From Candidatus Bathyarchaeota archaeon (GTDB taxonomy: Archaea > Thermoproteota > Bathyarchaeia > Bathyarchaeales > Bathycorpusculaceae), in NCBI GenBank assembly GCA_963828195.1, contig CAWHDT010000001.1, positions 160,001 through 224,000 of the forward strand: a stretch of DNA of 64,000 bases, read 5' to 3'. Every line of letters starts with the position of its first letter. The stretch's first letter is position 1. Shown piece by piece: positions 1 through 15,988 of the stretch. The translations under genes and the position numbers were made by a program. Below the pieces are notes generated by a model, which ran no database searches, was not told the DNA's origin, and saw nothing but the letters and a program-made list of their open reading frames with translations.

Positions 1-25
1 ATATCGTTCGTTATAGAATTTAGTC

Positions 26-50
26 GGTGAAGCCGCTGGGTCTAAGACCC
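26..50 (-). repeat. Degenerate tRNA 3'-end remnant, family B
   Basis: Plus strand GGTGAAGCCGCTGGGTCTAAGACCC resembles the reverse complement of a T-arm plus acceptor end (TGGTGGAGCCGCTGGGATTTGAACCC) and the copies at 135-158 and 12873-12897. Confidence 0.4.
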
Positions 51-78
51 AAAAAGGGTTCGGAACTTTTTATATTAC

Positions 79-120
79 TGGACGGGGGAAACTAGCACCA
101 ATTTACCAGTAAAACCACAG
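79..120 (-). repeat. Inverted, partly deleted copy of the palindrome + tRNA-end repeat (family A)
   Basis: Reverse complement CTGTGGTTTTACTGGTAAATTGGTGCTAG matches 6930-6958 at 23 of 29 positions and is followed by TTTCCCCCG. Confidence 0.6.
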
Positions 121-134
121 AGCTATGTTCCAAT

Positions 135-158
135 TAGTGGAACCGTTGGGATTTGAAC
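135..158 (-). repeat. Degenerate tRNA 3'-end remnant, family B
   Basis: Reverse complement GTTCAAATCCCAACGGTTCCACTA has a T-loop, T-stem 3' side and acceptor-like end; no D or anticodon arm. Confidence 0.55.
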
Positions 159-323
159 GTGCACTCTTGTTGAGTTCACCAAAGGGTTTCTCTTTTCTAA
201 TTAAAAATTCAAGGCAAGAATCTCATTTTCTAATATTTTGTTTTGAGTTCTAAAAAGACTTTGGAACTCTAAGTGTAATAACTGCGCCAGCCCGTTGCTA
301 ATTTGATTGGTTTGTAATTAGTT

Positions 324-1145
324 TCAGTTCTTGCTGTTAGTTTTCTTTTGGGTCTTGGTTGGAGTTGCTGTCGCCCATTTCATTTTGAAATAATCATGCA
401 AAAGTTCAACAACGTCGCAATTGTTTGACCATATGTCTGGAGCCCCGGCGTATGCTGATTTTGCCGATGTGCTTAGTCTTATTTCTTTTCCGTCGTAAAT
501 CCCAAAATTACCTGGAAGAGGGAGCGGGAGAGTTCTAACTTCAAAACAATCAGATTTGTCTAAACCCTCTAATATTTTCTTCAGCTCGATTTCATTTTCA
601 CTTTGCTCAGTGATAATTTGGAAGCTGACTTTTCTCTCAATTGCTTTGTTAAATGCTTTAAAAGAATTTGTCAGTACTGGTCCAAGCTTTTTTAAAGGAA
701 TCATTAAGAGCATTTCTTCTTTCGCGCTATCCAATGCTTTGGCTCTTTCGCGGATAAGCATCTCTTTTTCAGGAATCAAAATGAATTGATTAAGTTTTTC
801 TTTAGAGACATTCTTTTCGAAAGTGTTGTACTTTTCAATCAAAATATCTGCTTTTTCAGATAGTTCTGACTGGTCTTTTCTCTTCCTCTGGAGCAGCATC
901 GATAGGGCGTCAAAAATTGGTATAGCGGTAAACTCATTTGGCGAGGCGACAATTTTTTTAGCTAAACCTAAATCTTGGAGTTTGGAAATCGTTCGATACA
1001 CATCGGGTCGTGAAACACCGGAAACTTTGGCAATTTCAGGCGCCCTTGATGAACCATTCATGACAAGCGCTAGGTAAACTCTTGCCTCTGTGATCGTTAA
1101 TCCTAATCTAGAAATTGTCTGGGCATCTTCGTTTCCGTTAAGCAG
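324..1145 (-). CDS. TrmB-family transcriptional regulator
   Basis: Frame stays open upstream of the listed ATG (1061), giving LGLTITEARVYLAL, then HTH EIAKVSGVSRPDVYRTISKLQDLGL and a C-terminal effector domain (IYDGKEI, WSNN); start probably CTG at 1145. Confidence 0.85.
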   Translation of the reverse strand: MLNGNEDAQTISRLGLTITEARVYLALVMNGSSRAPEIAKVSGVSRPDVYRTISKLQDLGLAKKIVASPNEFTAIPIFDALSMLLQRKRKDQSELSEKADILIEKYNTFEKNVSKEKLNQFILIPEKEMLIRERAKALDSAKEEMLLMIPLKKLGPVLTNSFKAFNKAIERKVSFQIITEQSENEIELKKILEGLDKSDCFEVRTLPLPLPGNFGIYDGKEIRLSTSAKSAYAGAPDIWSNNCDVVELLHDYFKMKWATATPTKTQKKTNSKN

Positions 1146-1377
1146 AATAAAGCCCCATTGTTCAAGTATTAATTAACAATTAACAATATACTTCTTGCAG
1201 GGATTTATCTTTTTTCTCATTATTCTATTTATAACCAATATTTTGCGTGATGGCTTTATAATCGTGTGATTTGACGGTGGGTCACCCACCAACAAATGCT
1301 TTATACTCCCCTAAAACTATGTTTTATTACTTATTTTTGAGCGTTTTTAAACAATAGACATGAAAGGATGAAAAAAC

Positions 1378-2439
1378 ATGAAGAAAATACAAATCCTAAC
1401 AATAGTATTTCTAATTTCGTTAGCAATCTCCGCATTCGCGGGCATACAAGTCAAAGCTCAACCAAATACGTATCCAGTGACTTTTTTTAGTACAGGTCTT
1501 GGCTCTGATGCTACTGGGAACTTGATGACTTTCATGGTTACTGGCGGTTCATATTCTGGTGCTTCTAGTCCGATTGCCGTGGCTGGCGGTCCTGGCCCGG
1601 TTGACGCCGGTTCCATCCTTGTTGACATTACCGCAATAGTTACAGTGACTTTCGTTGATCCTATTCCGAGTACTATCCCTGGTGAACAGTATCGACTTAG
1701 CAGCGTTGATGGCAATGTTACCGGCAATCCTTCCTCAATTCTTAACATAGCTGATGGTGCCCTTCAAATTGTTACTGCTAACTATGTGCTTCAGGACAAT
1801 GTGGTCTTTACTGCTTCAGCCAACGTCCTGGGCGATAGTTCCGCAACGATTGTCACATCTGACAGTTTCTCCTACACCTTGGGCGTAAACACCGCTGGAA
1901 CTACTATGGTTAGCAGTGCCTCCTATGCTGCATCTGCTTTGCCCTACAAAGTTTGGGTTGACGACAGCACTCCAATTGCCTACAGTTTTGCAAGTCCTGT
2001 GGCTTCTTCTACATCGCCATCTACTATTCAGTATGTTTGGAGCAGCACCAGTGGGCTTGATATGTCTCAGTCGGATTCTTTCACTGTTCTTAGCCCAGGC
2101 ACGGTTACCGGCAACTATGTGTCTCAGGCTCCCTATTCTGGTCTTTCACCTGGGTTTTGGAAGCACAACATTGGCGTTTACTGCGGGACAAGTCCGGGAA
2201 GTTACAGCTCTCCACAACCAGGTCTGCCACATGAAACAGCCGCATCAATGCTATCCCTTGCCACGACAATTCTATCCACACATCCCGCCGGCGTGCCTCC
2301 AACTGTAACAACTGCATCTGATTTCCTATTCTGGGCTGACACCCAAATGAACAATCCAGCACTGAAAAACGTGGCCCCAACTTGGCTCACTATTGCCAAC
2401 TGGTTCAACGCAGCAGCAGGTTATACTCCATACCCATAA
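1378..2439 (+). CDS. Secreted Ser/Thr-rich beta-sheet surface protein
   Basis: Signal peptide MKKIQILTIVFLISLAISAFAG; repeated beta modules ending VTANY/VTGNY; C-terminal SPGFWKHN motif. Confidence 0.8.
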   Translation: MKKIQILTIVFLISLAISAFAGIQVKAQPNTYPVTFFSTGLGSDATGNLMTFMVTGGSYSGASSPIAVAGGPGPVDAGSILVDITAIVTVTFVDPIPSTIPGEQYRLSSVDGNVTGNPSSILNIADGALQIVTANYVLQDNVVFTASANVLGDSSATIVTSDSFSYTLGVNTAGTTMVSSASYAASALPYKVWVDDSTPIAYSFASPVASSTSPSTIQYVWSSTSGLDMSQSDSFTVLSPGTVTGNYVSQAPYSGLSPGFWKHNIGVYCGTSPGSYSSPQPGLPHETAASMLSLATTILSTHPAGVPPTVTTASDFLFWADTQMNNPALKNVAPTWLTIANWFNAAAGYTPYP

Positions 2440-3191
2440 GTAGCTGACTAAAAATAGCTCTCCTTTTTTCTTTTTGTTAAAAATCTATCTTTTTCCTGAT
2501 AACTTCCGCGCGTGGTTCTTCAGACCCTTTTCCTCCAATTGCCGCCTATTTATTTTTGCCCTTCAGCCACTGAAGCGTACAAGCCTTGAATGGCCTAACT
2601 CTATCGGCCATCTGTTTCTTAGAGTTTGAACCATAAGCAAAATACCAAACCGTGTTCGTCTGAGACTCGATTTTTGTCGGATACGAAACATCATGCCTGC
2701 ACTTGTCCATTTTCAGTATTTCCGTATACCAAGTTTATGTATGTGAACAGTTGCGCAAACGAGATATCTAACATTTGCTGTAAATTGGCTGCTTTTATGC
2801 CCCAAAATCGCTTGCTTCTTTCCATCAAAGAGTTTTCACCTCTCGCGAATGTTTTTTTGTTAGTTTAATGTTCGGTGCGATAAAAATTACAGTACAATCT
2901 ATAAAGTCATAATAAGCTATAGACATAACATTTATGTTCTCTAGATACTATCATAAAATAAGCAAAATATTCTCCGAATCTTGTTGTAAGAGGCTGAAAT
3001 TCTGTGAAAAAAATTTCTTTAATTAAGGTATTTAAATCGAGCCGAGCTCATAGAAGGCGCGCTTGGTTGCTTACAAAAGCTGTCGTATTATCGAAAGTTA
3101 CAATTAACAAGTCTCTGATCTGGACTATAAGTTTGAAGAAACATGGCGGAATTGAATCAAGGTTTGTCTCGTTAAGGAGGTCAACTCCGTC

Positions 3192-6100
3192 ATGACCCGT
3201 GTGGTTGTAGCAGGATCACAGTTAAGCTCAAAATTCGCAGTAATAGACTTCACGAACCCTAACAATCCAACCGTTGTGAAAACTGACGCTGGATGGCAGG
3301 GGGGTGCTCAAGTCACCTTAGATGGCAGCAACTTGTTTGTGGGCAACCTCCTCACCGGCGAGGTCCAGCTGTATGATGTTTCGAACCCAGCGACGCCGAC
3401 GCCGATGGGAAGCATAACGACAACTCTGAACGGCATAGGAGCAATCGCAGCAAAAGGAAACTTGGTGACGGTTGGAGAGTGGCAGAGCCTATCTGGGGCG
3501 CTGGTTGACTTGATAGACTTCTCGACCCCGAGCAACCCAAACATTATCGGTCAAGCCATAACACCAATTACCACAACCCCTACGACTAGCGGGACTAACC
3601 CTAATCCAGGTGCGATAACTTCAATTGCGTTCTTGAGCAATAATGTCGTAGTAGCCGCTGGGAATGGTCACTACAACGTCGTAGTCGTCGATTTTACGAA
3701 TCCGAACAGCCCAGCCGTCAATGAATTCAATCCATACCTGCAGGGAGCAGGCCCTCAAATCGATGCAGATTCCAAGGCAAATCAGATAGTCGCGGGTGAC
3801 TCTGGTCAAAGTGGAATAATCGAGCTCTTTGACGGAACCTCCCCATATAACAAAATAGGAACAGCGAATACGTCATTAACGGCTATAACGTCAATAGCGC
3901 TATCCCAAGGACTAACAATAGCCGGGAGCTCGTTTGATTTAGGACAGGCAGTACTAGTTGACTTTACCCAGAATCCTGCGACCAAAACGCCGATCACCAC
4001 GATATTCGGCGGCGCGAGCACTGTTGCAATCGACGGGACTACGGGAGCTTGTGGAGATGTCAATGGCAGCACTGTTCAGCTTTTCGACCTCACGCAATCC
4101 CCGCCTGCGCCTTTGGGCAGCATAGATTCCCAGGTCCAATCCATTGGAACCCTTTATACAAAATCGTTCACCGCCCCCGTTCCACAGACTCCCAAAATTT
4201 CCGTTAGCCCGACAGCTCTTGCCTTCGGCAACGTCAGAGTGGGAAGCCCTTCGCAGCTTGTGCTGAAGATCCAAAATACAGGGAACGCGCAACTCAAAGT
4301 AACAGCAATAAAGTCCTCGGACCCTCATTTCGTCCCATCACAGACGGGGCCAGTCAATATTGCAGCAGGACAATCCTCTTCACTTAATATCACTTATACA
4401 CCGACCTTGCAAACGGTCAATAACGCAAATCTGACCATCAATTCGAACGCCGCCAACGGAACGCTAAACGTTCCTCTCTCGGGAACCGGAGGTCTTCCTC
4501 AGATCTCCATATCCCCTACGAGCTTGAATCTGGGGAACGTTCCGGTCTGCGAGTCCGGAACTTCAACGATGATGATTACCAACAGTGGCGGCATCCCTTT
4601 GAACGTGACCTCGATTATCTCCAACAACGGCGCATTTAGCCCGAGTGTCCCGAGTCATACTAGCGCGATTGTTCAGCCTAATGGCTCATTGATAGTTACT
4701 GTAACGTTCAAACCTCAAGCTATAGGAGCGGCGAATGGTGCGCTCACCGTAGCCTCAAACGACCCTACCACGCCTTCGGCAAACGTCACATTGACAGGCA
4801 ACGGATTGCCAACCCCTCCCCCAAGCGTCACGGTAAACCCAACCTCAGAAAACTTCGGCCCCATCCCAGTGAATTATGGTGTCGGAAAAAGAATCACGGT
4901 TGCAAACTCTGGACCCTGTCAGGCGCTTCAAGTGACACTGACATCAAGTGGCCCCCCATTCTACATAACGATAGCTGCCCCGATATCTCTTCCGCCAATG
5001 AACCCCCCCCGTCGTCGATACCATAGGCCCCAACAGCTCTACCCAGTATGTCGTGACCTACTGGCCGACGAAGGTAGCAAACGATTTCGGCACTCTGACA
5101 ATTGCCAGCAACGATCCTGCAAATCCGAGCATCCAGGTTAACCTCTCAGGAAATGGCATCACACTATCACCCATCACCGCTGAGCTAGTACTTGACAAGT
5201 CGGGAAGCATGCAAGGAGCTGCAGCGGGAGGCGTGACCAAAATGACCGCGCTTCAGTCCGCCGTTGACCTCTTTGCCGATCTCGTCCAGACCGGCCAGAG
5301 CAACTCCGTCGGAGCCGTCGAGTTCGACAGCACCTCCTCGGTACTTACTCCCCTTGCATTATATACAGCAACTCAGCAGAGTGGGTTGGAAACCGCCGTT
5401 GGAACCCTCACTCCAGGTCAAACCACCTCTATAGGCGGGGGACTGCAGCTAGGTCAGAATCAACTCCCCACTGGTCAAGCCCCTCGAAACGTGTTAATCG
5501 TCTTCACCGATGGAATGGAGAATACCCCTCCCATGATCGCTACAGTCGAACCGGGCGTCCTTGCAACGGGCAGTCAGATTTTTGCCGTGGGATTGGGTCA
5601 ACCTCAAAACATCTCAAGTCAAGCACTCGCCGAACTCGCAGCCAGCAGTGGTGGTAAGTACTTCCAGACCGATGACACTCTTGTACTCAAAAAAGATTTC
5701 GTTGAGGTGCTCGCAGACGCATTCGCCAACAATCTAGCCGCAGACCCAATCATCACGCTCACCCCAGGACAAGTTTCAGACACCCCCGTTTCGATAACCA
5801 CATGTGAGCAGAGACTCACATTTACTCTGAACTGGGATAACCCATTGTTAACCCTGGCCTTGAGCATAATTGCGCCGGACGGCACGACCTATTCATCCAC
5901 ATCTCCTGGGAACAACCTCTTGGTCAGGTATGGCAGTTGACCCGGATACATCTATTATCAGATCGCCCTCCCCCCAATCGACCCCGGCTCCGGACTCGTA
6001 ATAGGGCCAAGAATCGTTGGCAACTGGATCATGCGAATAAACGCAGTTGGCTTGGCCAGCTCCTCCGAACGGTGTGCGACCACAGTCATGGTAGAAAGCA

Positions 6101-6576
6101 TCCTGAAAATGAGCTCTCAAGTCAATCTAGTTGACGCCGACACTCCAATGCAAATCTCCGCCCAACTCCTTAAAGACGGGGCCAAAATCACAAACGCACA
6201 AATACTCTTGTCAGTGATGGCACCTCTAAAGTCACTCGCAGCCACCATGACACCCGCGGTGGTTTTGCGAGCCAGGCAGGCCGACCAGCATCCTATAAAC
6301 GCTGGACAACCTCCGATGATTCCGACTGTAACCCATAAATACCGCCTCAAACCGAATCAAGATGGCATATTCCAGATAGAATTACCACCGCAAATCATCG
6401 ACGGTATCTATAAATTAACATTAGAAGCCACTGGCAGCGCCTGCGGCGGGCAGTTCCAGCGTCACGCAACTCAAAGCGTGTACTTGGGGAGTCGTAAGGC
6501 GCTTTATACCCGTCCCGAAGTGGCGATACCAGCTACACCAATCCTCACGAAAACCACAAATACTGTGCCCCTATAA
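3192..6576 (+). pseudogene. Disrupted ~1127-aa protein: beta-propeller repeats + three ASH/choice-of-anchor-D-like Ig domains + vWA + C-terminal domain
   Basis: SD GGAGG before ATG 3192; extra C in the C8 run at 5003-5010 shifts the frame (removal gives NPPVVDTIGPNSSTQYVVTYWPT); vWA MIDAS DKSGSM and FTDGMEN; in-frame TGA at 5938-5940, after which the same frame continues into ORF 6031-6576. Confidence 0.85.
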
Positions 6577-6610
6577 CGCTCAAATGGGCTCTCTCAATAG
6601 TCAGTCTAAA

Positions 6611-6657
6611 TTTGATCGATAAATCGACGATTTGGAAACCCCCAGTCGCCCTCTTGA
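6611..6657 (+). repeat. Highly degenerate family A repeat copy
   Basis: TTTGATCGATAAA palindrome-like start; ends in CGCCCTCTTGA, identical to 6973-6983. Confidence 0.35.
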
Positions 6658-6929
6658 ATCTAAATTTGAGTATGCTTTTTAGGGTGAAGGATTTCGACTC
6701 AAACGATGCTGTTCAGGGTAATTCATTAAACCATAAAACCGTAACTGACGCCTCACATAGGGATTGGAACCAAAAGAAGTTCTGAAACCCGAATTCTTGA
6801 ATGGACAACTGTGGAACCACTTATGGCTCTTCTACATAAAGAATTAGTCCCTTGACTTAAGAGATTAGAACATTGAAAACGGTAAGTCTCTAATTGGACT
6901 TGCCCCCAAACAAAGTATAAGTCAATAGA

Positions 6930-6976
6930 TTGTGGGTTTACTAGTAAACTGGGGCTCGAATCCCTTCCCCGGCGCC
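6930..6976 (+). repeat. att-like repeat A1: 14-bp palindrome + tRNA(Ser)-like 3' end
   Basis: GTTTACTAGTAAAC (6936-6949) followed by GGGGCTCGAATCCCTTCCCCGGCGCC. Confidence 0.8.
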
Positions 6977-7294
6977 CTCTTGAGGCTTGATTTTGTTACT
7001 TGAAGGATAAGCGAGTAGAAAAGAGTAAAGAGGTTTGATTATCATCGTGCATTAAGGGTTCGCTATCGTTATGGAACAGGCTATTGGTCAGAAGAATGCA
7101 AACGCTTTGGTATGGCGACACTGAAGCTGAATCTGATTTAACCAGAATCTTTTCCAACTCATACCTTTTCTGAGGTCTCAGAATAAAAGTTCGAACCTAA
7201 CAATTGGAAGATTTGTCAACAACCTACACATTTTATATTTATAGATTAAATAGGTTTTAGATAGCACTGCTGTATTTTTTGCCAATGCATTGGT

Positions 7295-7753
7295 TTATGG
7301 AATTTCGTAGAAACCACACAGTACATAAGTATTTTCTAAAGTTTTCATTATCTCTTTTGAATAGTAAATAGGGACAAGGGATTGGCAGCTATTTACTATG
7401 CTTAACTCATCTGACTCCAGCGTGTTACCGTTAATCCTCATGTTAGTGCATATCGCCGTAATCGAGTTATGAAAAAAGAAGTTCAGCCTGTCATTGCCAT
7501 TAATCATTTTTTTCAGTTTTTCGTTAACTTCATTGTCAACTGCAGGGGATTGTCTTGCGTTTTCCTTGAAGAGCGTTCGGTCTTTTATTCCAGTAATTGA
7601 AACACAGTCCTTAGGCAGCAGTGCAGCTAAAATAATATTTGCCTCGCCAACTTTCATGCGTAGATGCATATTAGGAACTAGATTGAAGTAACACCTAACT
7701 ATATTTTCAACGGCATTTTGAGCATTCATGAAAATCACAAATCTTGAGGTCAC
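7295..7753 (-). CDS. Hypothetical protein
   Basis: 152-aa ORF divergent from the Lrp gene; no recognisable motif. Confidence 0.5.
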   Translation of the reverse strand: MTSRFVIFMNAQNAVENIVRCYFNLVPNMHLRMKVGEANIILAALLPKDCVSITGIKDRTLFKENARQSPAVDNEVNEKLKKMINGNDRLNFFFHNSITAICTNMRINGNTLESDELSIVNSCQSLVPIYYSKEIMKTLENTYVLCGFYEIP

Positions 7754-7945
7754 TAAGGCTCCGAAGCACTAAGCAAGTTATCAAGATATATGTATAAGCT
7801 TTTCGTGCTATTGTAAAAAAAACCAAAATAAGTGGAATATATGCTCAATAAAAGTTTACTAAATTGGTTTTTCTGTAGAACATTGAAGCAATAATTCGTT
7901 CTTAAATGAATACATTAATTAGCTACTTCAAAAAATGAAGTTTTG

Positions 7946-8929
7946 ATGACAAAAGGAATTGATGTAATAAACGCTAAAATTCTAAAAGAACTGCTCAAAG
8001 ACGGACGAAAAAGCTTTGTAGAAATTGCGAAAGAGTGCAGCACATCAAAATACGTCATCGCAAAGCGCTACAAACAAATGAAGAGCAGGGGCATTATAGT
8101 CGGAGCACCAATCCAAAATAGCCCTGCTTGTTATGGTTGCAACCTGACTGCAGACATCCACATCTACACTCACCCTGATAAAGCGGACTCTCTACCTGAA
8201 CTGATTTCTAAAATTCCGCAAGTCTTTGCCGTTTATCACATTGGAATAAACCCAAGTTTAGCGACCATAGTGATAATGAAAAACATAAAGGAATTGGATC
8301 AAGTCAAACAATCAATAAAGAAACTGCCGTTCATTTTGGGAGTCGACACAAAGGTTTGGACGGGTATAAGAAACATTCCAGATAATTTATCGGTACTAAC
8401 GCTTCAAGAAGCAACTGGCAAAGCTGAGAATGAAAATGTAAATGCAAAAAACTCAATCGAAAAATTAGCGATTAAAATTGATGAAATAGATAGTCGGATA
8501 ATTGAAAAACTAGCAATAAATGCGCGCATGCCCTTTAAGACAATCGCTACGGAACTGGGAGTATCAACTGACACTGTGGTAAGAAGATATGAAAGACTGA
8601 AGAAAAACGGCGACCTTAAGGTGGTAGTACAAATCAACCCAACAAAAATAGGGTATTATGCTTATGCCACTTTCAAAATAGCTGTTATGTCTCAAGATAA
8701 TTTGCCTGATAAGTTAGAGAGCCTCGCCAAGATTCCAGATGTCAATAACATACTTAGAACAAGCGGCAATTTTGATTATATGATAAGTTTGATGGTAAGG
8801 GATATAAAACAGCTGACAGCCATTAAAGAAGAAATCGCCAGTATGCCTGGTGTTACAACTATGGAAACAAACGTAGAAAAACTGTTCAGCGTTTGGCCCC
8901 TTCCCAGAGAGTTCATATCAACAGTCTAG
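7946..8929 (+). CDS. Tandem-duplicated Lrp/AsnC-family regulator (two HTH + RAM units)
   Basis: Two AsnC HTHs (ILKELLKDGRKSFVEIAK; IDSRIIEKLAINARMPFKTIATELGVSTDTV), each followed by a ligand-binding domain (RTSGNFDYMI). Confidence 0.9.
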   Translation: MTKGIDVINAKILKELLKDGRKSFVEIAKECSTSKYVIAKRYKQMKSRGIIVGAPIQNSPACYGCNLTADIHIYTHPDKADSLPELISKIPQVFAVYHIGINPSLATIVIMKNIKELDQVKQSIKKLPFILGVDTKVWTGIRNIPDNLSVLTLQEATGKAENENVNAKNSIEKLAIKIDEIDSRIIEKLAINARMPFKTIATELGVSTDTVVRRYERLKKNGDLKVVVQINPTKIGYYAYATFKIAVMSQDNLPDKLESLAKIPDVNNILRTSGNFDYMISLMVRDIKQLTAIKEEIASMPGVTTMETNVEKLFSVWPLPREFISTV

Positions 8930-8951
8930 TTTTATTTCAATGATTTAAGCA

Positions 8952-8998
8952 CAATAGATTAATTTACCACTAAATTAGGTTCGAATCCCTTCTCCGAC
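8952..8998 (+). repeat. att-like repeat A2
   Basis: CAATAGATT (shared with 6923-6931), inverted arms TAATTTA-CCAC-TAAATTA, then GGTTCGAATCCCTTCTCCGAC. Confidence 0.75.
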
Positions 8999-9061
8999 TT
9001 CAACAGCAGCTAAGCAACCTTATAGGCTACGTTTGATATCTATTGTGTTAAAGGAATCTTC

Positions 9062-9355
9062 ATGTCTGAAACAATCACTCTAAGATTGCCGCCTCAAACA
9101 GCCAAGAAACTCCAAGAAATTGCCAGAAAAGAAGGCAAAGACCGCTCAAAGCTCATTCGGGAAATCCTCGAGAAGGGCGTCAAACAGAAAAGTATAGAGC
9201 AAGCCGTTGAACTTTACCGAACCGGTCAGGTTACAGCGTGGAAGGCTGCTCAGTTATCGGAGGTTTCGTTGTGGGCATTCTACAAAATATTAGAAGATGA
9301 AGGGGTCACTTTTCAGTATTCTGAACATGATTTAGAGGAAGACTTGAAAACATAA
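9062..9355 (+). CDS. UPF0175-family antitoxin with N-terminal ribbon-helix-helix
   Basis: TITLRLP...RSKLIREIL; AVELYRTGQVTAWKAAQLSEVSL; C-terminal DLEEDL. Confidence 0.85.
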   Translation: MSETITLRLPPQTAKKLQEIARKEGKDRSKLIREILEKGVKQKSIEQAVELYRTGQVTAWKAAQLSEVSLWAFYKILEDEGVTFQYSEHDLEEDLKT

Positions 9356-9372
9356 GAGGCTGAAAAACACAG

Positions 9373-9906
9373 TTGCAGACTGTCTCAAACACTAGCCCAC
9401 TTATCTGGCTCGCAAAGATTGGCAAACTCAGCATACTAAAAGAGTTGTTTGGTGAAGTCCTCATTTCAGAACAAAGTTATAAAGAAGCAGTCGAAAAAGG
9501 TTTAGAAGAGGGATTTAGCGATGCGTTGGTAATCAAAGACGCATGCGACCTAGGCTGGATCAAGGTCAAGCATCTTAGTGAGCGCCAAGTTGAACTTTGC
9601 CAGAAAATAACGCGGCACAGTTTTGAACTGCATCTAGGTGAAGCCCAAGCTATAGTTTTGGCACGTGAGATCGGTAAGGATGCGCTTTTGTTGATGGATG
9701 ACTCCAGTGGCCGAGCCTTCGCTGAAACGTGGGGTCTAAAAGTCAAAGGGACACTATATGTTATAATGACCGCGCTGCGAAGTGAATTATTAGATAATGC
9801 GGAGGCAAATGAGACAGTGCTAACTTTAGTGCGGAAAGGGTTCAGAATTGAATCAAAGTTACTGGCAAGAACTATACAAGAAATCGAAAAGTGCACGGAA
9901 CAATAA
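9373..9906 (+). CDS. PIN-domain toxin, DUF3368-like
   Basis: VSNTSPLIWL, LHLGEAQAIVLA, LLMDD, GLKVKGTL motifs; follows UPF0175 gene. Confidence 0.88.
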   Translation: MQTVSNTSPLIWLAKIGKLSILKELFGEVLISEQSYKEAVEKGLEEGFSDALVIKDACDLGWIKVKHLSERQVELCQKITRHSFELHLGEAQAIVLAREIGKDALLLMDDSSGRAFAETWGLKVKGTLYVIMTALRSELLDNAEANETVLTLVRKGFRIESKLLARTIQEIEKCTEQ

Positions 9907-9932
9907 GCCTATCGGTTTTAATTGATCTTGTC

Positions 9933-9971
9933 TTTTCTGGTCACAGGGACTCGAATCCACTCCCCGGTGCC
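9933..9971 (+). repeat. att-like repeat A3
   Basis: TTTTCTGGTCACAGGGACTCGAATCCACTCCCCGGTGCC aligns with A1. Confidence 0.7.
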
Positions 9972-10003
9972 CCACTTCGAATTAATCGGTTCGCTTAAGA
10001 GAG

Positions 10004-10321
10004 CTATTGAGTTCTGAGCCCGCTGAGTCTCTTGCCGAGTTCGTCGAAGATAATTTGCTTTTTCTCTTTGGTTAAGTTGAAGAGAACTTTGTTAGCCATT
10101 TCATTTGAGATAGTGAAGATATAGTTTAGTTTTATAACGCTGTCTTTTATGGCTCCTTCACTTTTGGTTAGGGGTATTCCTTTCATTTTGAGATTGCTTG
10201 TTATGCCTGCGATCACAACATTGCCAAGCTCTTCAAAAAGAACCACCGCTGGCCGAACTTTTACCTCATCTGTGTCCGTGAACTGCACGCTTGCCAGAAT
10301 AACGTCACCAGGCTTAAGCAT
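10004..10321 (-). CDS. PemK/MazF-family toxin
   Basis: PGDVILASVQFTD..KVRPAVVL...VVIAGITSN; ATG at 10321 overlaps the upstream stop codon. Confidence 0.88.
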   Translation of the reverse strand: MLKPGDVILASVQFTDTDEVKVRPAVVLFEELGNVVIAGITSNLKMKGIPLTKSEGAIKDSVIKLNYIFTISNEMANKVLFNLTKEKKQIIFDELGKRLSGLRTQ

Positions 10322-10547
10322 CTTCCCAAGCCTCATCCTCCTCGTTACCCCATAATTCTTTCATCTTCGCCTGCTGAATCCTGTGGAGAAACTCGTCGTA
10401 TTGCCTACTCTTTCCAGATTCTTTCGCAGTTTTTATTAAAGTCAAGATTGTTTCGTTGTAGGTTTCTCGCGGGTATTTCCTGATGTTTTTTAGTTCTTTA
10501 ACTACTGATTTCTTAAGTTGAATGGTGGTAACATCTTTGTCTGTCAT
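10314..10547 (-). CDS. Antitoxin partner of the PemK/MazF toxin
   Basis: RHH-like TTIQLKKSVVKEL...ETYNETI; acidic tail KELWGNEEDEAW; translationally coupled to the toxin. Confidence 0.8.
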   Translation of the reverse strand: MTDKDVTTIQLKKSVVKELKNIRKYPRETYNETILTLIKTAKESGKSRQYDEFLHRIQQAKMKELWGNEEDEAWEDA

Positions 10548-10620
10548 TATAGGCTCGCTATAAGTATCTATGACGCATTATAATATATCTGTATCGCCAA
10601 GCTGCCTTAATTAAAAAATA

Positions 10621-10664
10621 GGGACTTCGGGTTCGCAGAGATTCGAATTTCTTCTCCGGCACCA
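10621..10664 (+). repeat. att-like repeat A4 (possible variable-arm remnant, ends in CCA)
   Basis: GGGACTTCGGGTTCGCAGAGATTCGAATTTCTTCTCCGGCACCA. Confidence 0.7.
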
Positions 10665-10840
10665 ATTTTTAAGTGTTTTCTGGGACGTTTCGGCTAAATA
10701 GTGACAATTTCTGGTTATGTAGAAACACCTCCGAAACAATCGAAATCTGGAGCAAAATTTTGCAAATGAAAAATATGAAAAGTGCGCGCCAAGAAAAGGC
10801 GACGCGGCATTGAACGATTTTTGTGAGTACAGAGATTGTT

Positions 10841-12550
10841 TTATTGGCTTCTGGAGTTTGCTCTGTTCGCTGCCATTTGCTTTCTCATTTGTTCGAGGGC
10901 TTTTTGGTCAAGGTAGTATTTTCCGTTGACTTCTTGGAAAACTTTTGTTTGTCCTGCACGTCTCTCCATGAAATCTTCAAATCGCGGCGGCAAGCCAAGT
11001 TGTTCGGCGGTCATGGCTTTTTCTGGGATAGTGGCTCCTTTCTGCTGGAAAGTGCTGACCAGTCGGCGGAATCGCTCTATACGCTCTTGTTGGCTTAGTA
11101 GTCTCTGCTGTGTTTGCTGAGTGGGTTGGGCGGCTTGGGTTGGGGTTTGTTGCGTCTGGATAGTTGGTGGTGGAGGTGCAACGTTAGGTTGGTTTGAAGT
11201 CACCTCGCTTTCTTCTGCTGCGCCGCTTCCATCATCGTTGTTTTTTGGATTTGAGGTGCTGACGCTTGATGAGCTAGCTGATCCTGCTGAGCTTCCAACT
11301 GCTCCACCTGATCCTTTTCCTCGTGTAAACTTGAAACCTACAATAGCAACGACAACTACGACTGCAACGACTCCGATGATTATGAACAGAAGACTGTTGG
11401 AGCTTGATGAGGGTGCGGTGGATGATGCGGGGGTGCTTGTTGGAGCTGAGGAGATAGCGGGGGTTGAAGTTGCAGTGGTTGAGGTTCCAGTGGCCGAATC
11501 CGACAGATATGAGACTGCGTTGGAGCCACCGTCAACTATGAATATCTCGCTTTTTGCAGAATCGTAAGCTACACCTAGTGCAAGGGGTCCATTGGAATCC
11601 GCACTTATTGGTAACTGAACAAGAGGAGCATACGCCACAACGTTGTTGCTTGAATCGGATATTGCAACGATGTAGGTGCCAGTTTCTTCGAATATTTCGG
11701 CCTTGCTAGTATCATAGGTTAAATCTGTAGGATTTCCTGAGTAGGTTGCAGATGCCAAGGTGTTAGTTGCGACAACGGAGTTGGAGCTATCAGATATTAC
11801 TTCGAACCCGCCGTCAACCTCGTCGGCTACGTATATTTCTCCTTTAGTTGAATCGTAAGCTAGCCCTTCTGGACCGTTTCCCGCGTTCACGGTTTTAACC
11901 ACCTGATTGTTGCTGTCTGTTATTACGGAAACGGTGGATGACAATTCGTTGGAGACAAATATTTCGTTTTTACCTTGATCATAAGCGACGCCGATTGGGC
12001 CGACTCCTACGGTTATGGTTGCTATCTCGGTGTTTGAGCTATCTGAGATGACTGAAACTGTGGATGGCGGAGGATTGGATTCTTGACTAGCCGCGTTATA
12101 ATTGGAATTTGCTACGAACAACTCGCCTTTTCCAGAATCATAAGCGATACCTTCGGGGCCTATTCCCACTGTAATGGTTTGAACTACAGAGTCAGAGCTG
12201 TCTGATATGACAGCTACCGAGCCATTGGTTGAGCCGTCGCCCTCATCAGTTACAAACAACTCTCCCTTCTGAGAATCATAAGCGATACCAGTGGGATATT
12301 GCCCTACTCCGCTTATAGTTTGAACCACTGAATTAGAGCTATCAGATATGACCGAGACTGTGCCGCCGCCCTGATTAGTTACAAATATTTCTCCTTTTAC
12401 AGAATCATAGGCAGCGTATTCTGGACTGCTCCCAACTGTTATTGTTGGTGGAACAGAAAGCTGCGTGACAGCGTGAACCATATTGGCCGCTGACAGGGCA
12501 AAAACCACAATTAATAAGGCACATAATAGTTTCCAAACTTTGACTTTCAT
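10841..12550 (-). CDS. Single-pass surface protein: YncE/YVTN beta-propeller, Ser/Thr linker, TM helix, cytoplasmic tail
   Basis: Signal peptide; repeats of GIAYDS.KGE.FV.N...TVSVISDS; TM LLFIIIGVVAVVVVVAIVG; Q-rich linker and small C-terminal domain. Confidence 0.9.
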   Translation of the reverse strand: MKVKVWKLLCALLIVVFALSAANMVHAVTQLSVPPTITVGSSPEYAAYDSVKGEIFVTNQGGGTVSVISDSSNSVVQTISGVGQYPTGIAYDSQKGELFVTDEGDGSTNGSVAVISDSSDSVVQTITVGIGPEGIAYDSGKGELFVANSNYNAASQESNPPPSTVSVISDSSNTEIATITVGVGPIGVAYDQGKNEIFVSNELSSTVSVITDSNNQVVKTVNAGNGPEGLAYDSTKGEIYVADEVDGGFEVISDSSNSVVATNTLASATYSGNPTDLTYDTSKAEIFEETGTYIVAISDSSNNVVAYAPLVQLPISADSNGPLALGVAYDSAKSEIFIVDGGSNAVSYLSDSATGTSTTATSTPAISSAPTSTPASSTAPSSSSNSLLFIIIGVVAVVVVVAIVGFKFTRGKGSGGAVGSSAGSASSSSVSTSNPKNNDDGSGAAEESEVTSNQPNVAPPPPTIQTQQTPTQAAQPTQQTQQRLLSQQERIERFRRLVSTFQQKGATIPEKAMTAEQLGLPPRFEDFMERRAGQTKVFQEVNGKYYLDQKALEQMRKQMAANRANSRSQ

Positions 12551-12872
12551 AAACATTCCTCAACATATTTTTCTGAAACAAACTAGATGTACTGAATTGT
12601 TTATTCATGCGTAACCTTCCCCACAAGCGGGTATATTTTTTGGAATTTAAAGCTTGCGCTAGCCTGATTCCATTAGGTTCAAGTAATTCACCGTCCGCTT
12701 AATATGTAAAATTTTTATAAAGTATAGATTAGTAAAAAGCAAAAAAAATCAAATTTTAATAAATTCTGATACCCTCCCAAAAAATGGCAAGTAATCAATT
12801 GCAGGTAATCTTCTATATGTTGGTTGAAATAATAGTCTTAAGTGATGAGATCGTGAAGCGTCTCTACCATCT

Positions 12873-12897
12873 TGGTGGCTCTGCTAGGTTTGAACCC
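12873..12897 (-). repeat. Degenerate tRNA 3'-end remnant, family B, with CCA
   Basis: Reverse complement GGGTTCAAACCTAGCAGAGCCACCA. Confidence 0.55.
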
Positions 12898-12912
12898 AAT
12901 TTTTAGGCTCTT

Positions 12913-12953
12913 GTTATCGGTAAATTGGGGTTCTAATCCCTTCCTCGGCGCCA
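12913..12953 (+). repeat. att-like repeat A5 at the accessory/core boundary
   Basis: GTTATCGGTAAATTGGGGTTCTAATCCCTTCCTCGGCGCCA. Confidence 0.8.
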
Positions 12954-13101
12954 AACTCGCATGCACCGCATCTCCAAAGACTCGATTTTTCGGCAACCAT
13001 TATGCTCAAAATCAATACTCAATGAATCACAGCAGATTTCCATAATGTTTTTCTTCTCACAAGACGAAGGCTTGTAGTTGCATATCCTGAAGTGGAATTA
13101 A

Positions 13102-13642
13102 ATGGTGGAAAATACGGTGAAGGACCCTGGCCCAATCTGGATAAGCCGAGAATTCGCAAAATGCAGCGGCTGCCGCAAATGCGAGATCGCGTGCTCTCTG
13201 CATCATGAAAATAAAATCTGGCCTGAAGCCTCAAGAGTTCGCGTGTTCATGCCTAGTTCCAGGCACAGAATTCCCTCATTTATGCACTCAATGCGAAGAT
13301 TACCCGTGTGTTAGAGCTTGCCCCTTTAAAGCTCTGGATATAAACAAGGAAACCAGCGCAGTAACCGTTAACGTGGACAAGTGCAAGGGCTGTGGCAAAT
13401 GCGTGGATGCTTGCCCGGGGAAAGTTCCGCATGTTCACCCAGAGAGTAAGAAGATTTTGATCTGTGACTTGTGTGGCGGAGATCCGAAGTGCGCCAAAGT
13501 ATGCCAAGAAGGCGGCTGGAACTGCTTAAAAGCGGTTGACCGTGGAGATCACGAGTTCAAACTTTATGCGCGTATCCCCGAGGAGACTGCAAGAAACCTC
13601 GCCACTAAGTTGTATGGCGAGAAAGCGGAGGAGTTTTTCTGA
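13102..13642 (+). pseudogene. 4Fe-4S dicluster electron-transfer subunit, frameshifted (or sequence error)
   Basis: CSGCRKCEIAC in one frame; CTQCEDYPC, CKGCGKCVDAC, CDLCGGDPKC in the next; one extra C at 13252-13253 (ATG-C-CTA-GTT). Confidence 0.85.
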
Positions 13643-15510
13643 TGCTTGGCTACGCTGGAAAATTCTTGGAAGTGGACCTGTCAACTTCAACCGTTAAAAA
13701 CACGACGGTTCCTGACGAGTGGCTAAAAGACTTCATGGGGGGCAGGGCGTTAGCCGTTAAAATCCTAAGCGAAAGATTAATCGATAAATGGGAGAAGGTT
13801 GACCCTCTTGGACCCGAAAACCTGCTGTTGTTAATGACTGGGCCTTTCACAGGGTATTTTCCAGGTGGTAGAACATGCGTCACAGGCAAATCGCCCCAAA
13901 GCAACGGCGTAGTTGGCTCTACGGTCGGCGGCGAATTCGGAGTTGAGCTTAGATGCGCAGGTTACGACGGCGTAATAGTGTCGGGAAAAGCTGAGAAACC
14001 AGTTTACCTGTTCATAAAGGATTCTGATGTGGAACTCAGGGACGCCGGCGACATCTGGGGCAAAGATGGCAAACAAACCGATGCCTTGTTGAACCGCGAA
14101 TGCCGACGCTTGCTGTCTGAGCGCTACCCGCACGTGGGTGTTTGGAAGGAGCCGGCTAAACTTTACATTGGACCTGCTGGTGAACGGAAAGTTCGACCCT
14201 CGGTTGTTGTGGCTAAATGGACTCACGCTGCAGGTTACGGCGGATACGGCGCAGTTATGGGGTCAAAAAACCTTAAAGCCGTCGCTGTTAAAGGCACGGG
14301 ACCGCTTCCTGAAGTTGCGGATTTGGAGAAAGTCAAGCAAATGATTGATGAAGTCTGCAAAGGCGCCTATAGGAACGTGTTGTGGCGCAGGTGGGGAACT
14401 GGGGGAGGAGGCTACAGTTTCGGAGCCGAAACCAGTTCTGAACCTATTCGCAATTGGCAGGAAGAATGGCATGACCAGAGAAGCTACGGTGTAGACCAGT
14501 TTGAGAGCAAAGTTTGGGTTAAACCTGCATGGAGCGATTTCGGCTGCCCCACAAACTGCTTGAAAATCAGCTGCATCCGCGCGGGAAAATACAAGGGTGC
14601 TATAACAGATAATCCTGATTATGAGCTGCAGGCTTTTCTGGGTCCAAATTTGGGTTTGTTTACACCTGAAGAAAACGTGCATTTGTCCTCGCTTATTGAA
14701 GATTTAGGTATGTGTGGCATCCAAGCTGGCAGCGTAATGGGTTTTGCAGCTGAGCTTTTTCAACGCAGCATCTTAACCAAGGCTGATCTGGAGGGGTTGG
14801 AGTTGAAATGGGGCGACATCGACGCTTTCGCAGCTTTGGCAAAGAAAATCGCTTATCGAGAAGGCATAGGCGACTTACTGGCTGAAGGGACATACCGAGC
14901 TGCACTCAAAATTGGGAAGATGAAAAACAAAAACCTCTTACCCTACACTGTAACAAGCAAAGGCATCAGTATCGGTGCCCACGGCATCAGAAGCGGAAGA
15001 GACTTCTCAAGAGAAATAGGCTACGCCTGCAGCGTTCAGGGCGGCGACCATTCATCCATGACGGATTTGCCCATTGACGGATGGGGCAGTGAGATTTGGC
15101 AAATATTTAACGATTCAGCAGTAATGTGCATTTTCACTTCTTTCAGCATATCACCGAGCTTTAGATATGAATTCTACAATGCCGTGACAGGTCAAAGTTT
15201 AAGTCGCAATGGATGGCTAAACGGCGGAGGAATGAAAACGCTGCAGATACAGAGGGCTCTTCTGCTTTTTGGTGGACCCGATTTAAAGTGGAACCCGAAA
15301 GTTGACGATGATAACCCAGAGAGGTTCTATGAGCCGCTGCCTTCGGGACCATGCAAGGGGCAAGCCGCTGACAGGGCAAGTGTAAAGCAGAAAGTGCGTC
15401 AATATTACGAGCAAGCAGGGTGGGACCAAAGCGGCACACCTACATCTGAGACACTACGCAAACTGAATTTAGAATATGTAGATAAAAACTTAAACAGGGT
15501 AAGAAGTTAA
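13642..15510 (+). CDS. aor: Aldehyde:ferredoxin oxidoreductase family (tungsten) enzyme
   Basis: GYAGKFLEVDLS, KSPQSNG, GAVMGSKNLKAVAV, REGIGDLLAEG, YYEQAGWD motifs. Confidence 0.92.
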   Translation: MLGYAGKFLEVDLSTSTVKNTTVPDEWLKDFMGGRALAVKILSERLIDKWEKVDPLGPENLLLLMTGPFTGYFPGGRTCVTGKSPQSNGVVGSTVGGEFGVELRCAGYDGVIVSGKAEKPVYLFIKDSDVELRDAGDIWGKDGKQTDALLNRECRRLLSERYPHVGVWKEPAKLYIGPAGERKVRPSVVVAKWTHAAGYGGYGAVMGSKNLKAVAVKGTGPLPEVADLEKVKQMIDEVCKGAYRNVLWRRWGTGGGGYSFGAETSSEPIRNWQEEWHDQRSYGVDQFESKVWVKPAWSDFGCPTNCLKISCIRAGKYKGAITDNPDYELQAFLGPNLGLFTPEENVHLSSLIEDLGMCGIQAGSVMGFAAELFQRSILTKADLEGLELKWGDIDAFAALAKKIAYREGIGDLLAEGTYRAALKIGKMKNKNLLPYTVTSKGISIGAHGIRSGRDFSREIGYACSVQGGDHSSMTDLPIDGWGSEIWQIFNDSAVMCIFTSFSISPSFRYEFYNAVTGQSLSRNGWLNGGGMKTLQIQRALLLFGGPDLKWNPKVDDDNPERFYEPLPSGPCKGQAADRASVKQKVRQYYEQAGWDQSGTPTSETLRKLNLEYVDKNLNRVRS

Positions 15511-15550
15511 ATCTACCAAAAAATAGGCAGAGAATTTTGGGGAAAAAGTC

Positions 15551-15838
15551 TTAGCCCATGAATGTTGGGTGTGCGTCTTCCTCGTTAATGTGGTGCATAA
15601 CATGAATAGCTAGTCCAGTGGCGGCGCCTGCGGAAAGCCCCAAAAGCAAATCGGTGACAGCTGCAATTTGTCCGACTAACCCTAAAACTACAAGCGCATC
15701 GAAAACTAAAGCAACGCCCAAATAACCTGCACACCACATTTTGACGCTCATTCCCCGCGGCTTGTTTATGCCTATGCCGCCTAAGAAACCGAACATAATC
15801 AGGAAGCCGATTAAAGCGAATATCCAATCGTAACTCAA
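15551..15838 (-). CDS. Small integral membrane protein (three TM helices)
   Basis: Three hydrophobic segments; His-rich C-terminus. Confidence 0.7.
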   Translation of the reverse strand: MSYDWIFALIGFLIMFGFLGGIGINKPRGMSVKMWCAGYLGVALVFDALVVLGLVGQIAAVTDLLLGLSAGAATGLAIHVMHHINEEDAHPTFMG

Positions 15839-15988
15839 ATTTTTTCACCTGTCAGTCTGGCTATGTTCATTTAGAGCTTTATTAGCTTATCGAATTCAAG
15901 TCTGATAAAGGAAGCATGATTTGAAATTTGAGGATACATACCGCTAGGTTTTATTACCTTCATCGAAGAATCTTAACTACCTTAGGAT

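Follow-up and report, generated by a model that had tools for sequence, protein, structure and literature searches.

Degenerate copies of a tRNA-Ser 3' end bound small integrase-less units in a Bathyarchaeota genome: probably an old integration hotspot

Introduction

Integrons combine the integrase IntI and the attI site with arrays of attC cassettes, most of which carry one promoterless open reading frame, all facing the same way; their chromosomal arrays are rich in toxin-antitoxin (TA) cassettes. TA pairs are addiction modules, which is the basis for the view that they persist longer than the elements that carried them. In Sulfolobales, 'gene capture' by SSV-type integrases is said to have been described by She et al. 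in 2001, and the studies of Pavlovic in 2004 and Bellanger in 2011 are reportedly the references for cis-mobilisable elements (CIMEs) and site-specific accretion. Here we describe five direct repeats derived from the 3' end of a tRNA-Ser gene, which bound an array of small units in a 64,000-nucleotide stretch (the window) of a Candidatus Bathyarchaeota archaeon (assembly GCA_963828195.1, contig CAWHDT010000001.1, positions 160,001 to 224,000 of the forward strand). The array is probably an old integration hotspot of a known kind and not new gene-cassette machinery. The locus had been pointed out in an original prediction made from the letters of the window, which proposed an integron-like array with a recombinase acting in trans and named eroded remnants of serial island insertions as the alternative.

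Integrase loss after integration in archaea is described in part of one study (PMC8371274), and a section of another states that arrays arise through re-use of one att site (PMC6563490). For streptococcal islands formed by integrative and conjugative or integrative and mobilisable elements (ICE/IME), excerpts of a third source describe decay to integrase-less CIMEs that keep attL and attR, accretion and composite tandem structures (PMC5704250). Large genomic islands and a provirus are reported for Bathy-6 genomes in a portion of a further paper (PMC11697101). Among literature titles on integrases and tRNA integration in Bathyarchaeia, mostly taken as titles only, none was found that addresses such arrays.

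Results

The host tRNA gene and the repeat copies

The window lies on contig C1 of the source genome (G000; 2.83 Mb, 9 contigs, about 44% G+C), and positions without a contig name are those of the window. By ARAGORN with introns allowed over the whole genome, an intact tRNA-Ser(CGA) gene was located at C1:159724-159853 on the + strand, 148-277 bp to the left of the window start. It has a 47-nt intron, seen by Rfam as an insertion in the anticodon loop, and Rfam scored a full-length tRNA at the same coordinates (50.4 bits against a gathering score of 29). The consensus of the repeats is the final 26 nt of this gene; the copies were scored against these 26 nt and match the host tRNA at 20-24 of them. 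The original prediction had derived the repeats from the 3' end of a tRNA-Ser and had sought the intact gene to the left of the window, and both expectations were borne out. The tyrosine recombinase sought on the same side was not found: the genes left of the tRNA are not recombinases, and no PF00589 match occurs on contig C1, the genome's five matches sitting on other contigs.

The five copies (c1 to c5) were all recovered where they had been predicted. All lie on the + strand, in the orientation of the tRNA, whatever strand the neighbouring genes use. Copy c1 (6937..6977, +) comprises the palindrome TTTACTAGTAAA at 6937-6948 and a tRNA-Ser 3' core at 6952-6977 that matches at 24/26; it is the attR-type end of the first unit, U0, with a class A left arm (see below), and is 97.8% identical over 45 bp to a copy in the related genome G016. 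Copies c2 (8977..9002, +; 21/26), c3 (9947..9972, +; 20/26) and c4 (10639..10664, +; 20/26) are decayed cores in which 5-6 of the 26 positions are lost, and the deviations of c2 are common to a copy in G016. Copy c5 (12928..12953, +) has a 24/26 core and a class A-like left arm. It is the final copy ahead of the conserved right flank, which consists of a ferredoxin gene (13205-13642, +) and an aldehyde:ferredoxin oxidoreductase gene (AFOR; 13642-15510, +), and it thus stands, as had been proposed, where the core genes begin. Ferredoxin and AFOR are syntenic with the tRNA in G019, G003 and G134, and close AFOR orthologues (86-93% amino-acid identity) were present in 6 of the 24 same-genus genomes first sampled.

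A shared 27-mer had been put forward for all the copies. At no more than 3 mismatches this 27-mer gave 2 matches in the window, c1 (6951) and c5 (12927), versus 0 in each of 100 shuffles; the motif holds for these two copies, and c2-c4 are more decayed, beyond 3 mismatches. When both strands of the whole G000 genome were searched at a score of at least 20/26, 19 sites were obtained, namely tRNA-Ser(CGA) itself, c1-c5, two inverted copies on C1, and other tRNA genes or fragments adjoining them. None of the 19 falls in unrelated intergenic DNA, and the possibility that the motif is simply scattered over core intergenic regions, which the original prediction had named as a ground for rejecting it, was not realised. 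ARAGORN called no tRNA gene in the window, and Rfam saw nothing tRNA-like in 6800-13100, even at E up to 10; the copies are therefore fragments and not genes. They fall outside every Pfam-supported gene, in keeping with the intergenic position ascribed to them, and c5 is overlapped only by short open reading frames (ORFs) of 52-57 aa, which are probably spurious.

Just upstream of tRNA-Ser, at C1:159324-159439 (about 14324-14439 of locus L001), lies a short intergenic repeat of about 40-115 bp. Dozens of copies of it, at 80-100% identity, occur in G013, G016, G004 and G019, and it looks like a miniature inverted-repeat transposable element (MITE) or another dispersed repeat.

The units of the array

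The units carry one to five genes, with both strands represented. U0 (1..6936, +) is about 7.1 kb long, since it begins at the 3' end of tRNA-Ser(CGA) at C1:159854, 147 bp left of the window. Its class A non-coding arm, which adjoins the tRNA core on the right, has a TTTACCAGTAAA site at 102-113, and the unit encodes a TrmB-like regulator (324-1061, -), an unknown protein of 353 aa (1378-2439), an Ig-like/choice-of-anchor-D protein of 649 aa (3192-5141), a VWA protein (5053-5940) and an unknown protein of 181 aa (6031-6576). The 353-aa protein is not similar to the 350-aa unknown protein that adjoins the c1-like copy in G016. A split SSV-type integrase was considered for U0 and rejected, the longest frame across the simulated junction of the U0 end with the post-tRNA DNA being 83 codons.

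U1 (6978..8976) holds a truncated AIPR/Abi-like gene piece of 152 aa (7295-7753, -) and a tandem double Lrp/AsnC regulator (7943-8929, +). The 152-aa ORF covers positions 1-91 of the 308-position AIPR model and positions 240-334 of the 567-position Abi-like PHROG profile; since only part of each profile is covered, it is a gene fragment. U2 (9003..9946, +) is a TA pair composed of an RHH/UPF0175 antitoxin (9062-9355, +) and a DUF3368 (PIN-like) toxin (9373-9906, +). U3 (9973..10638, -; 666 bp) is a second TA pair, with a PemK/MazF-like toxin (10004-10336, -) and its antitoxin (10314-10547, -). U4 (10665..12927, -) contains a single surface-type gene, for an NHL/YVTN beta-propeller protein of 571 aa (10841-12556, -). 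The gene content is as had been described from the ORFs, the 'hypothetical' of U1 proving by Pfam and PHROGs to be the AIPR/Abi-like piece. No integrase or other recombinase was found among the ORFs of the array by Pfam, NCBIfam or PHROGs, and with the PF00589 scan likewise negative the array is without integrase, as first noted.

The same site in related genomes

The DNA between tRNA-Ser(CGA) and ferredoxin/AFOR is hypervariable in the genus. The site is near-empty in G019, where the tRNA is separated from ferredoxin/AFOR only by a stump of the U2 toxin gene (170 bp) and then one relic copy (18/26). In both G004 and G134, U2 stands between an att copy and the flank, U3 and U4 being absent, and alignment of the junctions in G019, G004 and G134 places one truncated relic where G000 has c3-U3-c4-U4-c5. 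In the complete genome of G003, 5.2 kb of unrelated genes separate the tRNA from ferredoxin. G078 has U3 alone, 665 bp, between the tRNA and a 25/26 copy. Four public sequencing runs were also compared with window 1-16000 as low-depth Logan contigs, in pieces of 190-1270 bp, none of which spans a whole unit of the G000 strain; no circular form and no polymorphism inside the strain was seen, at a depth that cannot show rare or circular junctions. The only joins in public contigs come from one metagenome contig of a relative, X1 (depth 21), in which 6976 is joined to 9020 and 9050 to 13034; the source of X1 is therefore a relative without U1 and U3-U4. Across G019, G004, G134, G003, G078 and X1, differences in gene content stop at the repeats, as had been anticipated, with boundaries within about 60 bp.

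The flank of G000 is 88-91% identical to those of G004, G019 and G134, and G078 is more distant. Between G000 and G078, U3 is 80.7% identical and the upstream flank 82.3%; because U3 and the flank have diverged to about the same extent, U3 looks vertically inherited. The simplest history is that U3 is old at the locus and was lost together with U4 through recombination between copies in the lineage of G004, G019 and G134; alternatively, U3 may have been inserted at an internal copy in G000. The U2 TA pair (9020-9887) is 70.6-71.4% identical to its counterparts in G004 and G134, with flanks at 84.6-91%. This divergence reflects either fast evolution or a related pair that was acquired independently at the same place.

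An integrase clade at tRNA-Ser and its decay

In G043, a 424-aa PF00589 protein starts 35 bp past the tRNA and is convergent with it, and its 95%-identical counterpart in G013 runs off the end of a contig. Relatives of the G043 integrase are encoded by 282 stretches of the public genome collection, and among the records listed these are titled as Candidatus Bathyarchaeia or Bathyarchaeota metagenome-assembled genomes. Of the 13 closest loci checked (57-100% identity), 12 have the tRNA-Ser core 38-66 bp beyond the stop codon of the integrase, and the 13th is interrupted by a contig end. More distant members adjoin tRNA-Cys, Leu, Pro, Ala or Arg; about 40 of 60 scanned loci have an adjoining tRNA in a scan that is blind to intron-bearing tRNAs. 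The family is an ordinary one of tRNA-targeting integrases, in which each clade has its own target.

At the tRNA-Ser site the integrase gene is found in successive states: intact in G043 and G013, frameshifted in G011, partial in G045 (after copy 4) and G066, and a stump in G059. G000 itself carries no more than a paralogue on C3, 28% identical, and a 79-aa piece on C9 (C9:64800-65036, -), which is 68% identical to residues 290-368 of the tRNA-Ser integrase and is the only trace of the clade in that genome. A second set of ORFs, of 468-508 aa with weaker PF00589 matches, lies mostly no more than a few kb from contig ends in G000 (C5:949941-950474(-), C7:19940-20320(+), C6:5712-6233(+)) and G016 (C5:3748, C6:3746), and is represented in G124 as well (C1:2818, C8:86292). 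Their position suggests a repeated element that breaks assemblies.

Copies and cargo across the genus

A 24-nt core was found at no more than 2 mismatches in 75 of the 81 genus genomes searched, and 16 of the 81 (G000 included) hold at least 2 direct copies within 30 kb. Four copies lie within 9.7 kb in G045 and three occur in G042; elsewhere the members of a pair are 0.7 to 30 kb apart. By the DNA ahead of the core, the copies can be sorted as follows. In class A the palindrome TTTACnnGTAAA stands 4-5 bp ahead of the core, with up to 115-180 bp of similarity beyond it; this left arm is present in c1, c2 and c5, in copies of G016, G074, G062, G045, G042, G059 and G082, and further in G095, G099, G124, G134, G004 and G019. 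In class B the core is preceded by ...CCCCTCTTTCTCTGG (G011, G066, G076, G059 and G043), and the third left-arm type is a repeat of at least 45 nt of the tRNA. On its right side the core is followed in class B by the 3' end of the integrase gene and in class A by a conserved non-coding stretch of about 200-250 bp, which in G000 is 94.8% identical to that of G062 and 78-82% to those of G074 and G045.

Left arm, core and right arm of class A occur together in copies 2 and 3 of G045 and in G099, G124 and G042. Such combined junctions are attP-like, as expected between tandem inserts of one family. Many class A cores are perfect (26/26), and class A arms also border a unit at tRNA-Ser(GGA). With 13 sites in the genome, compared with 3-14 for each of six control words, the word TTTACnnGTAAA shows no enrichment, and only its placement at tRNA-Ser att sites is notable. 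Exact IUPAC class A patterns gave 0 matches in viral or metagenome contigs, a count from strict patterns that does not imply absence. The class A right arm (14854-15110 of locus L001, with homologous stretches in L025, L023 and L033) has the TTTACTAGTAAA palindrome about 98 bp past the tRNA and also a tRNA-like stretch, GCTGGGTCTCAGACCC...GGGTTCGGAAC, which is perhaps the relic of an older att site.

Class A arms enclose unrelated cargo in some ten genomes. Between copies of whatever class, the cargo found includes glycolysis and glycogen genes (G074), CobN with ABC transporters (G076), Cdc48/TBP with a contractile injection system (G062), PQQ propellers (G051), a Zn transporter, a PAS kinase and a hybrid-cluster protein (G045), and an ATP-citrate lyase/isocitrate dehydrogenase (IDH)/aconitase cluster (G134). 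About 230 ORFs from units of some 20 genomes were scanned against Pfam, and no recombinase was found among them except the class B integrase and two insertion sequence (IS) transposases. Six-frame PF00589 searches in ten genomes gave no match inside any class A unit, and class B remnants did match. In all, the class A units in which such searches revealed no integrase or remnant are those of the G000 array, G045, G062, G042, G099, G134, G016:C8, G124, G121, G053 and G074. An all-against-all comparison of the unit ORFs revealed no recurrent unknown family able to act as a recombinase in cis; the families that do recur are confined to TrmB-like regulators, PQQ/Ig surface proteins and ABC ATPases.

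The G062 unit spans about 20 kb between two tRNA-Ser copies (9750-14333 of L025 and 2188-14363 of L026), and its injection-system genes encode sheath, tube, baseplate J/gp25, spike and a PA14 protein. In G134 (7774-14123 of L046) the genes for aconitase, IDH and ATP-citrate lyase are whole, and in G016:C8 (7157-13522 of L018) they are split into many short frames; the latter are either real pseudogenes or assembly frameshift errors.

Other tRNA genes and inverted copies

Direct 3'-end copies 0.65-5.2 kb downstream were detected at 10 of the 46 predicted tRNA genes of G000. The nine besides Ser(CGA) are those for Asn, Ala, Cys, Met, Thr, Leu-TAG, Ser-GCT, Ser-GGA and Arg-CCG, and each is accompanied by a copy of its own 3' end (C5:222582-224062, C5:248138-249019, C5:397519-399022, C7:160371-161248, C9:109414-110412, C9:111374-113807, C3:37576-42022, C1:413793-419134 and C1:6759-10979). 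TA-type genes are represented by a PIN pair at tRNA-Ala, UPF0175 at tRNA-Cys, DUF433 at tRNA-Met and a nucleotidyltransferase (MNT) at tRNA-Thr; the other cargo consists of an archaeal ATPase, PAS kinase/response regulators and small redox proteins. No integrase was found in the units at these nine genes.

Additional inverted copies of the tRNA-Ser core, 39-89 kb off, are present in G000, G016, G080 and G081. In G000 they lie outside the array at C1:237391-237416(-) and C1:241578-241603(-), matching at 22/26 and 23/26 (9391-9416 and 13578-13603 of locus L002, outside the window). They border a TrmB-like regulator and an 884-aa PQQ/Ig protein and adjoin genes for L44e, PAC2, MCM, GINS and glutamate dehydrogenase (GDH). 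In G004 the GDH-GINS-MCM block directly follows the tRNA-Ser array, and inverted pairs occur also in G016, G080 and G081, which points to rearrangement at these copies. A single inversion between att copies was considered as the cause of the inverted copies at C1:237-242 kb and of the different gene orders in G000 and G004, and was rejected, as no one inversion interconverts the two orders; the G004 assembly is 71% complete, in 60 contigs, with two tRNA-Ser(CGA) copies. In G000, tRNA-Leu(GAG) at C1:277135-277220(+) also has a perfect 26/26 inverted 3'-end copy 13 kb away, at C1:290226(-), with essential-looking genes between them (arginyl-tRNA synthetase, deoxyhypusine synthase); this may be another inversion at an att copy.

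Discussion

We put at about 70% the probability that the array is an old tRNA-Ser(CGA) integration hotspot of a soil archaeon, built by tandem accretion and then decayed. Circular elements whose attP copied the T-arm and acceptor end of the tRNA would have recombined with the tRNA gene by means of a tyrosine integrase. Every insertion would have rebuilt the tRNA and displaced the old 3'-end copy to the far end of the insert, and repeated insertions would have stacked the inserts in tandem. The inserts would then have lost their integrases and most of their cargo through deletion, leaving small integrase-less units: two TA pairs, regulators and surface proteins. The TA pairs were likely kept, their loss being counter-selected, and the TA units at several tRNA genes of G000 would fit with TA modules outlasting the elements that brought them. 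Relatives would differ exactly at the repeats because recombination between direct repeats, site-specific or homologous, would remove or keep whole units. In this account we infer the order of events, the survival of TA pairs through addiction and the integrase responsible for each unit.

Eroded serial island insertions, which the original prediction had named as its alternative, fit the data best, considering the integrase decay series, the AIPR piece, c2-c4 at 20-21/26 and the divergence of U3. The series of integrase states, the gene truncations, the loss of core positions in the inner copies and the divergence of U3 and U2 all point to long residence and not to active shuffling. Several observations nevertheless weigh against accretion and decay. 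First, the arms of class A stay alike from one species to another around cargo that is unrelated, and many class A cores show no mismatch. Secondly, class A units contain no integrase or remnant detectable in six-frame PF00589 searches with E up to 0.1 or 0.01, and pure decay must assume that integrases were always lost first and tracelessly. Thirdly, c5, which is expected to be the oldest copy, is at 24/26 better kept than c2-c4 and than its counterparts in G019 and G004. In addition, divergence from G004 and G134 is far greater in U2 than in either flank, and some of the cargo is ordinary core metabolism (glycolysis; ATP-citrate lyase/IDH/aconitase).

An alternative possibility, which we regard as unlikely, is that the units, or those of class A at any rate, are recombinase-free cassettes of a CIME- or integron-like kind, moved in trans by the integrase of an element entering at the same tRNA or by one of the chromosome. 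The class A arms around unrelated cargo speak for it, with right arms at 78-95% identity over about 200 bp among G000, G062, G074 and G045, and left arms that extend their similarity up to 115-180 bp past the palindrome TTTACnnGTAAA. So do the perfect 26/26 cores, the class A arms at tRNA-Ser(GGA), the lack of PF00589 in every class A unit examined and of any common unknown protein that could serve as a recombinase in cis, and the existence in the genus of a tRNA-Ser(CGA)-specific integrase clade with an identical core. The attP-like junctions between units in G045, G099, G124 and G042 can be read in the same way; however, they are equally produced by ordinary tandem integration of related elements. 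Moreover, G000 is without an intact member of the tRNA-Ser integrase clade (best match 28%, plus the 79-aa stump), c2-c4 are decayed, U3 looks vertically inherited and the units are multi-gene and on both strands. Because 5-6 of their 26 core positions are lost, c2-c4 do not look maintained as sites. For the array itself, the integron-like scheme first proposed was not upheld, given that no recombinase adjoins the platform, that multi-gene units lie on both strands between decayed copies, and that U3 has diverged about as far as the flank. More doubtful still is the proposal in its general form, namely that class A sites are the recombination sites of a cassette system of soil Bathyarchaeia with its enzyme in trans, by which recombinase-free segments of 0.7-22 kb, from metabolic operons to TA pairs, would enter and leave tRNA-Ser genes. 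Recombinase-free class A units with conserved arms match CIME-like mobilisation in trans and integrase-stripped tandem inserts alike.

It seems very improbable that the repeats spread or persist by a route other than integration, such as duplication or gene conversion of a tRNA-like module, or as signals for RNA processing or termination. Gene conversion from the tRNA could account for the unexpectedly good state of c5, and the T-arm with the acceptor is a tRNA-like end that can form a hairpin. On the other hand, the copies all keep the tRNA orientation regardless of the strand of neighbouring genes, the same geometry recurs at ten tRNA genes, each with its own 3' end, and Rfam sees nothing tRNA-like in the copies; the integrase present at this site in relatives makes such an explanation unlikely. 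Least credible of all is construction of the array by SSV-type (class I) integrases, whose own gene is split on integration, with int(N) and int(C) at opposite ends of the unit and the frame restored across attP: in archaea, 'gene capture' at tRNA genes is known to proceed in this way, but the array ORFs (Pfam, NCBIfam, PHROGs) and contig C1 (PF00589) gave no integrase match.

The array is a precisely mapped, genus-wide case of gene gain and fixation at tRNA genes in an uncultured soil archaeal lineage, one that combines a matched integrase clade, an integrase decay series and TA pairs as the smallest surviving units. Should class A units move in trans after all, archaeal tRNA genes would be cassette platforms, and the system would be a functional analogue, in archaea, of integrons or of CIME mobilisation.

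The locus can finally be set against the systems described at the outset. As in tandem tyrosine-integrase elements at tRNA genes, a 3' part of the tRNA is duplicated directly with the intact tRNA at one end, the site is near-empty or differently filled in relatives, and an integrase of the same family stands beside the same tRNA there. It differs from typical elements of this sort in that its units, at least five in number, are very small (0.67-7 kb) and all lack an integrase, and in that the pattern recurs at about ten tRNAs of one genome. With CIMEs it shares units bounded by att copies from which the integration and transfer genes are lost; unlike the streptococcal ones, it resides in an archaeal host without conjugation genes, its inner att copies are decayed, and mobilisation by a neighbouring integrase is putative. 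Like SSV-type 'gene capture', it has foreign genes fixed beside an archaeal tRNA gene once the integrase was lost, but there is no split integrase here, and the integrase of the relatives is whole and beside the tRNA. The resemblance to integrons lies in small units split by repeated sequences that look like recombination sites, in TA pairs among the units and in the absence of an internal recombinase. In contrast to integrons, however, no IntI-type integrase stands at the platform, the sites copy a tRNA 3' end in direct orientation and are not attC hairpins, and the multi-gene units lie in both orientations between sites that are decaying.

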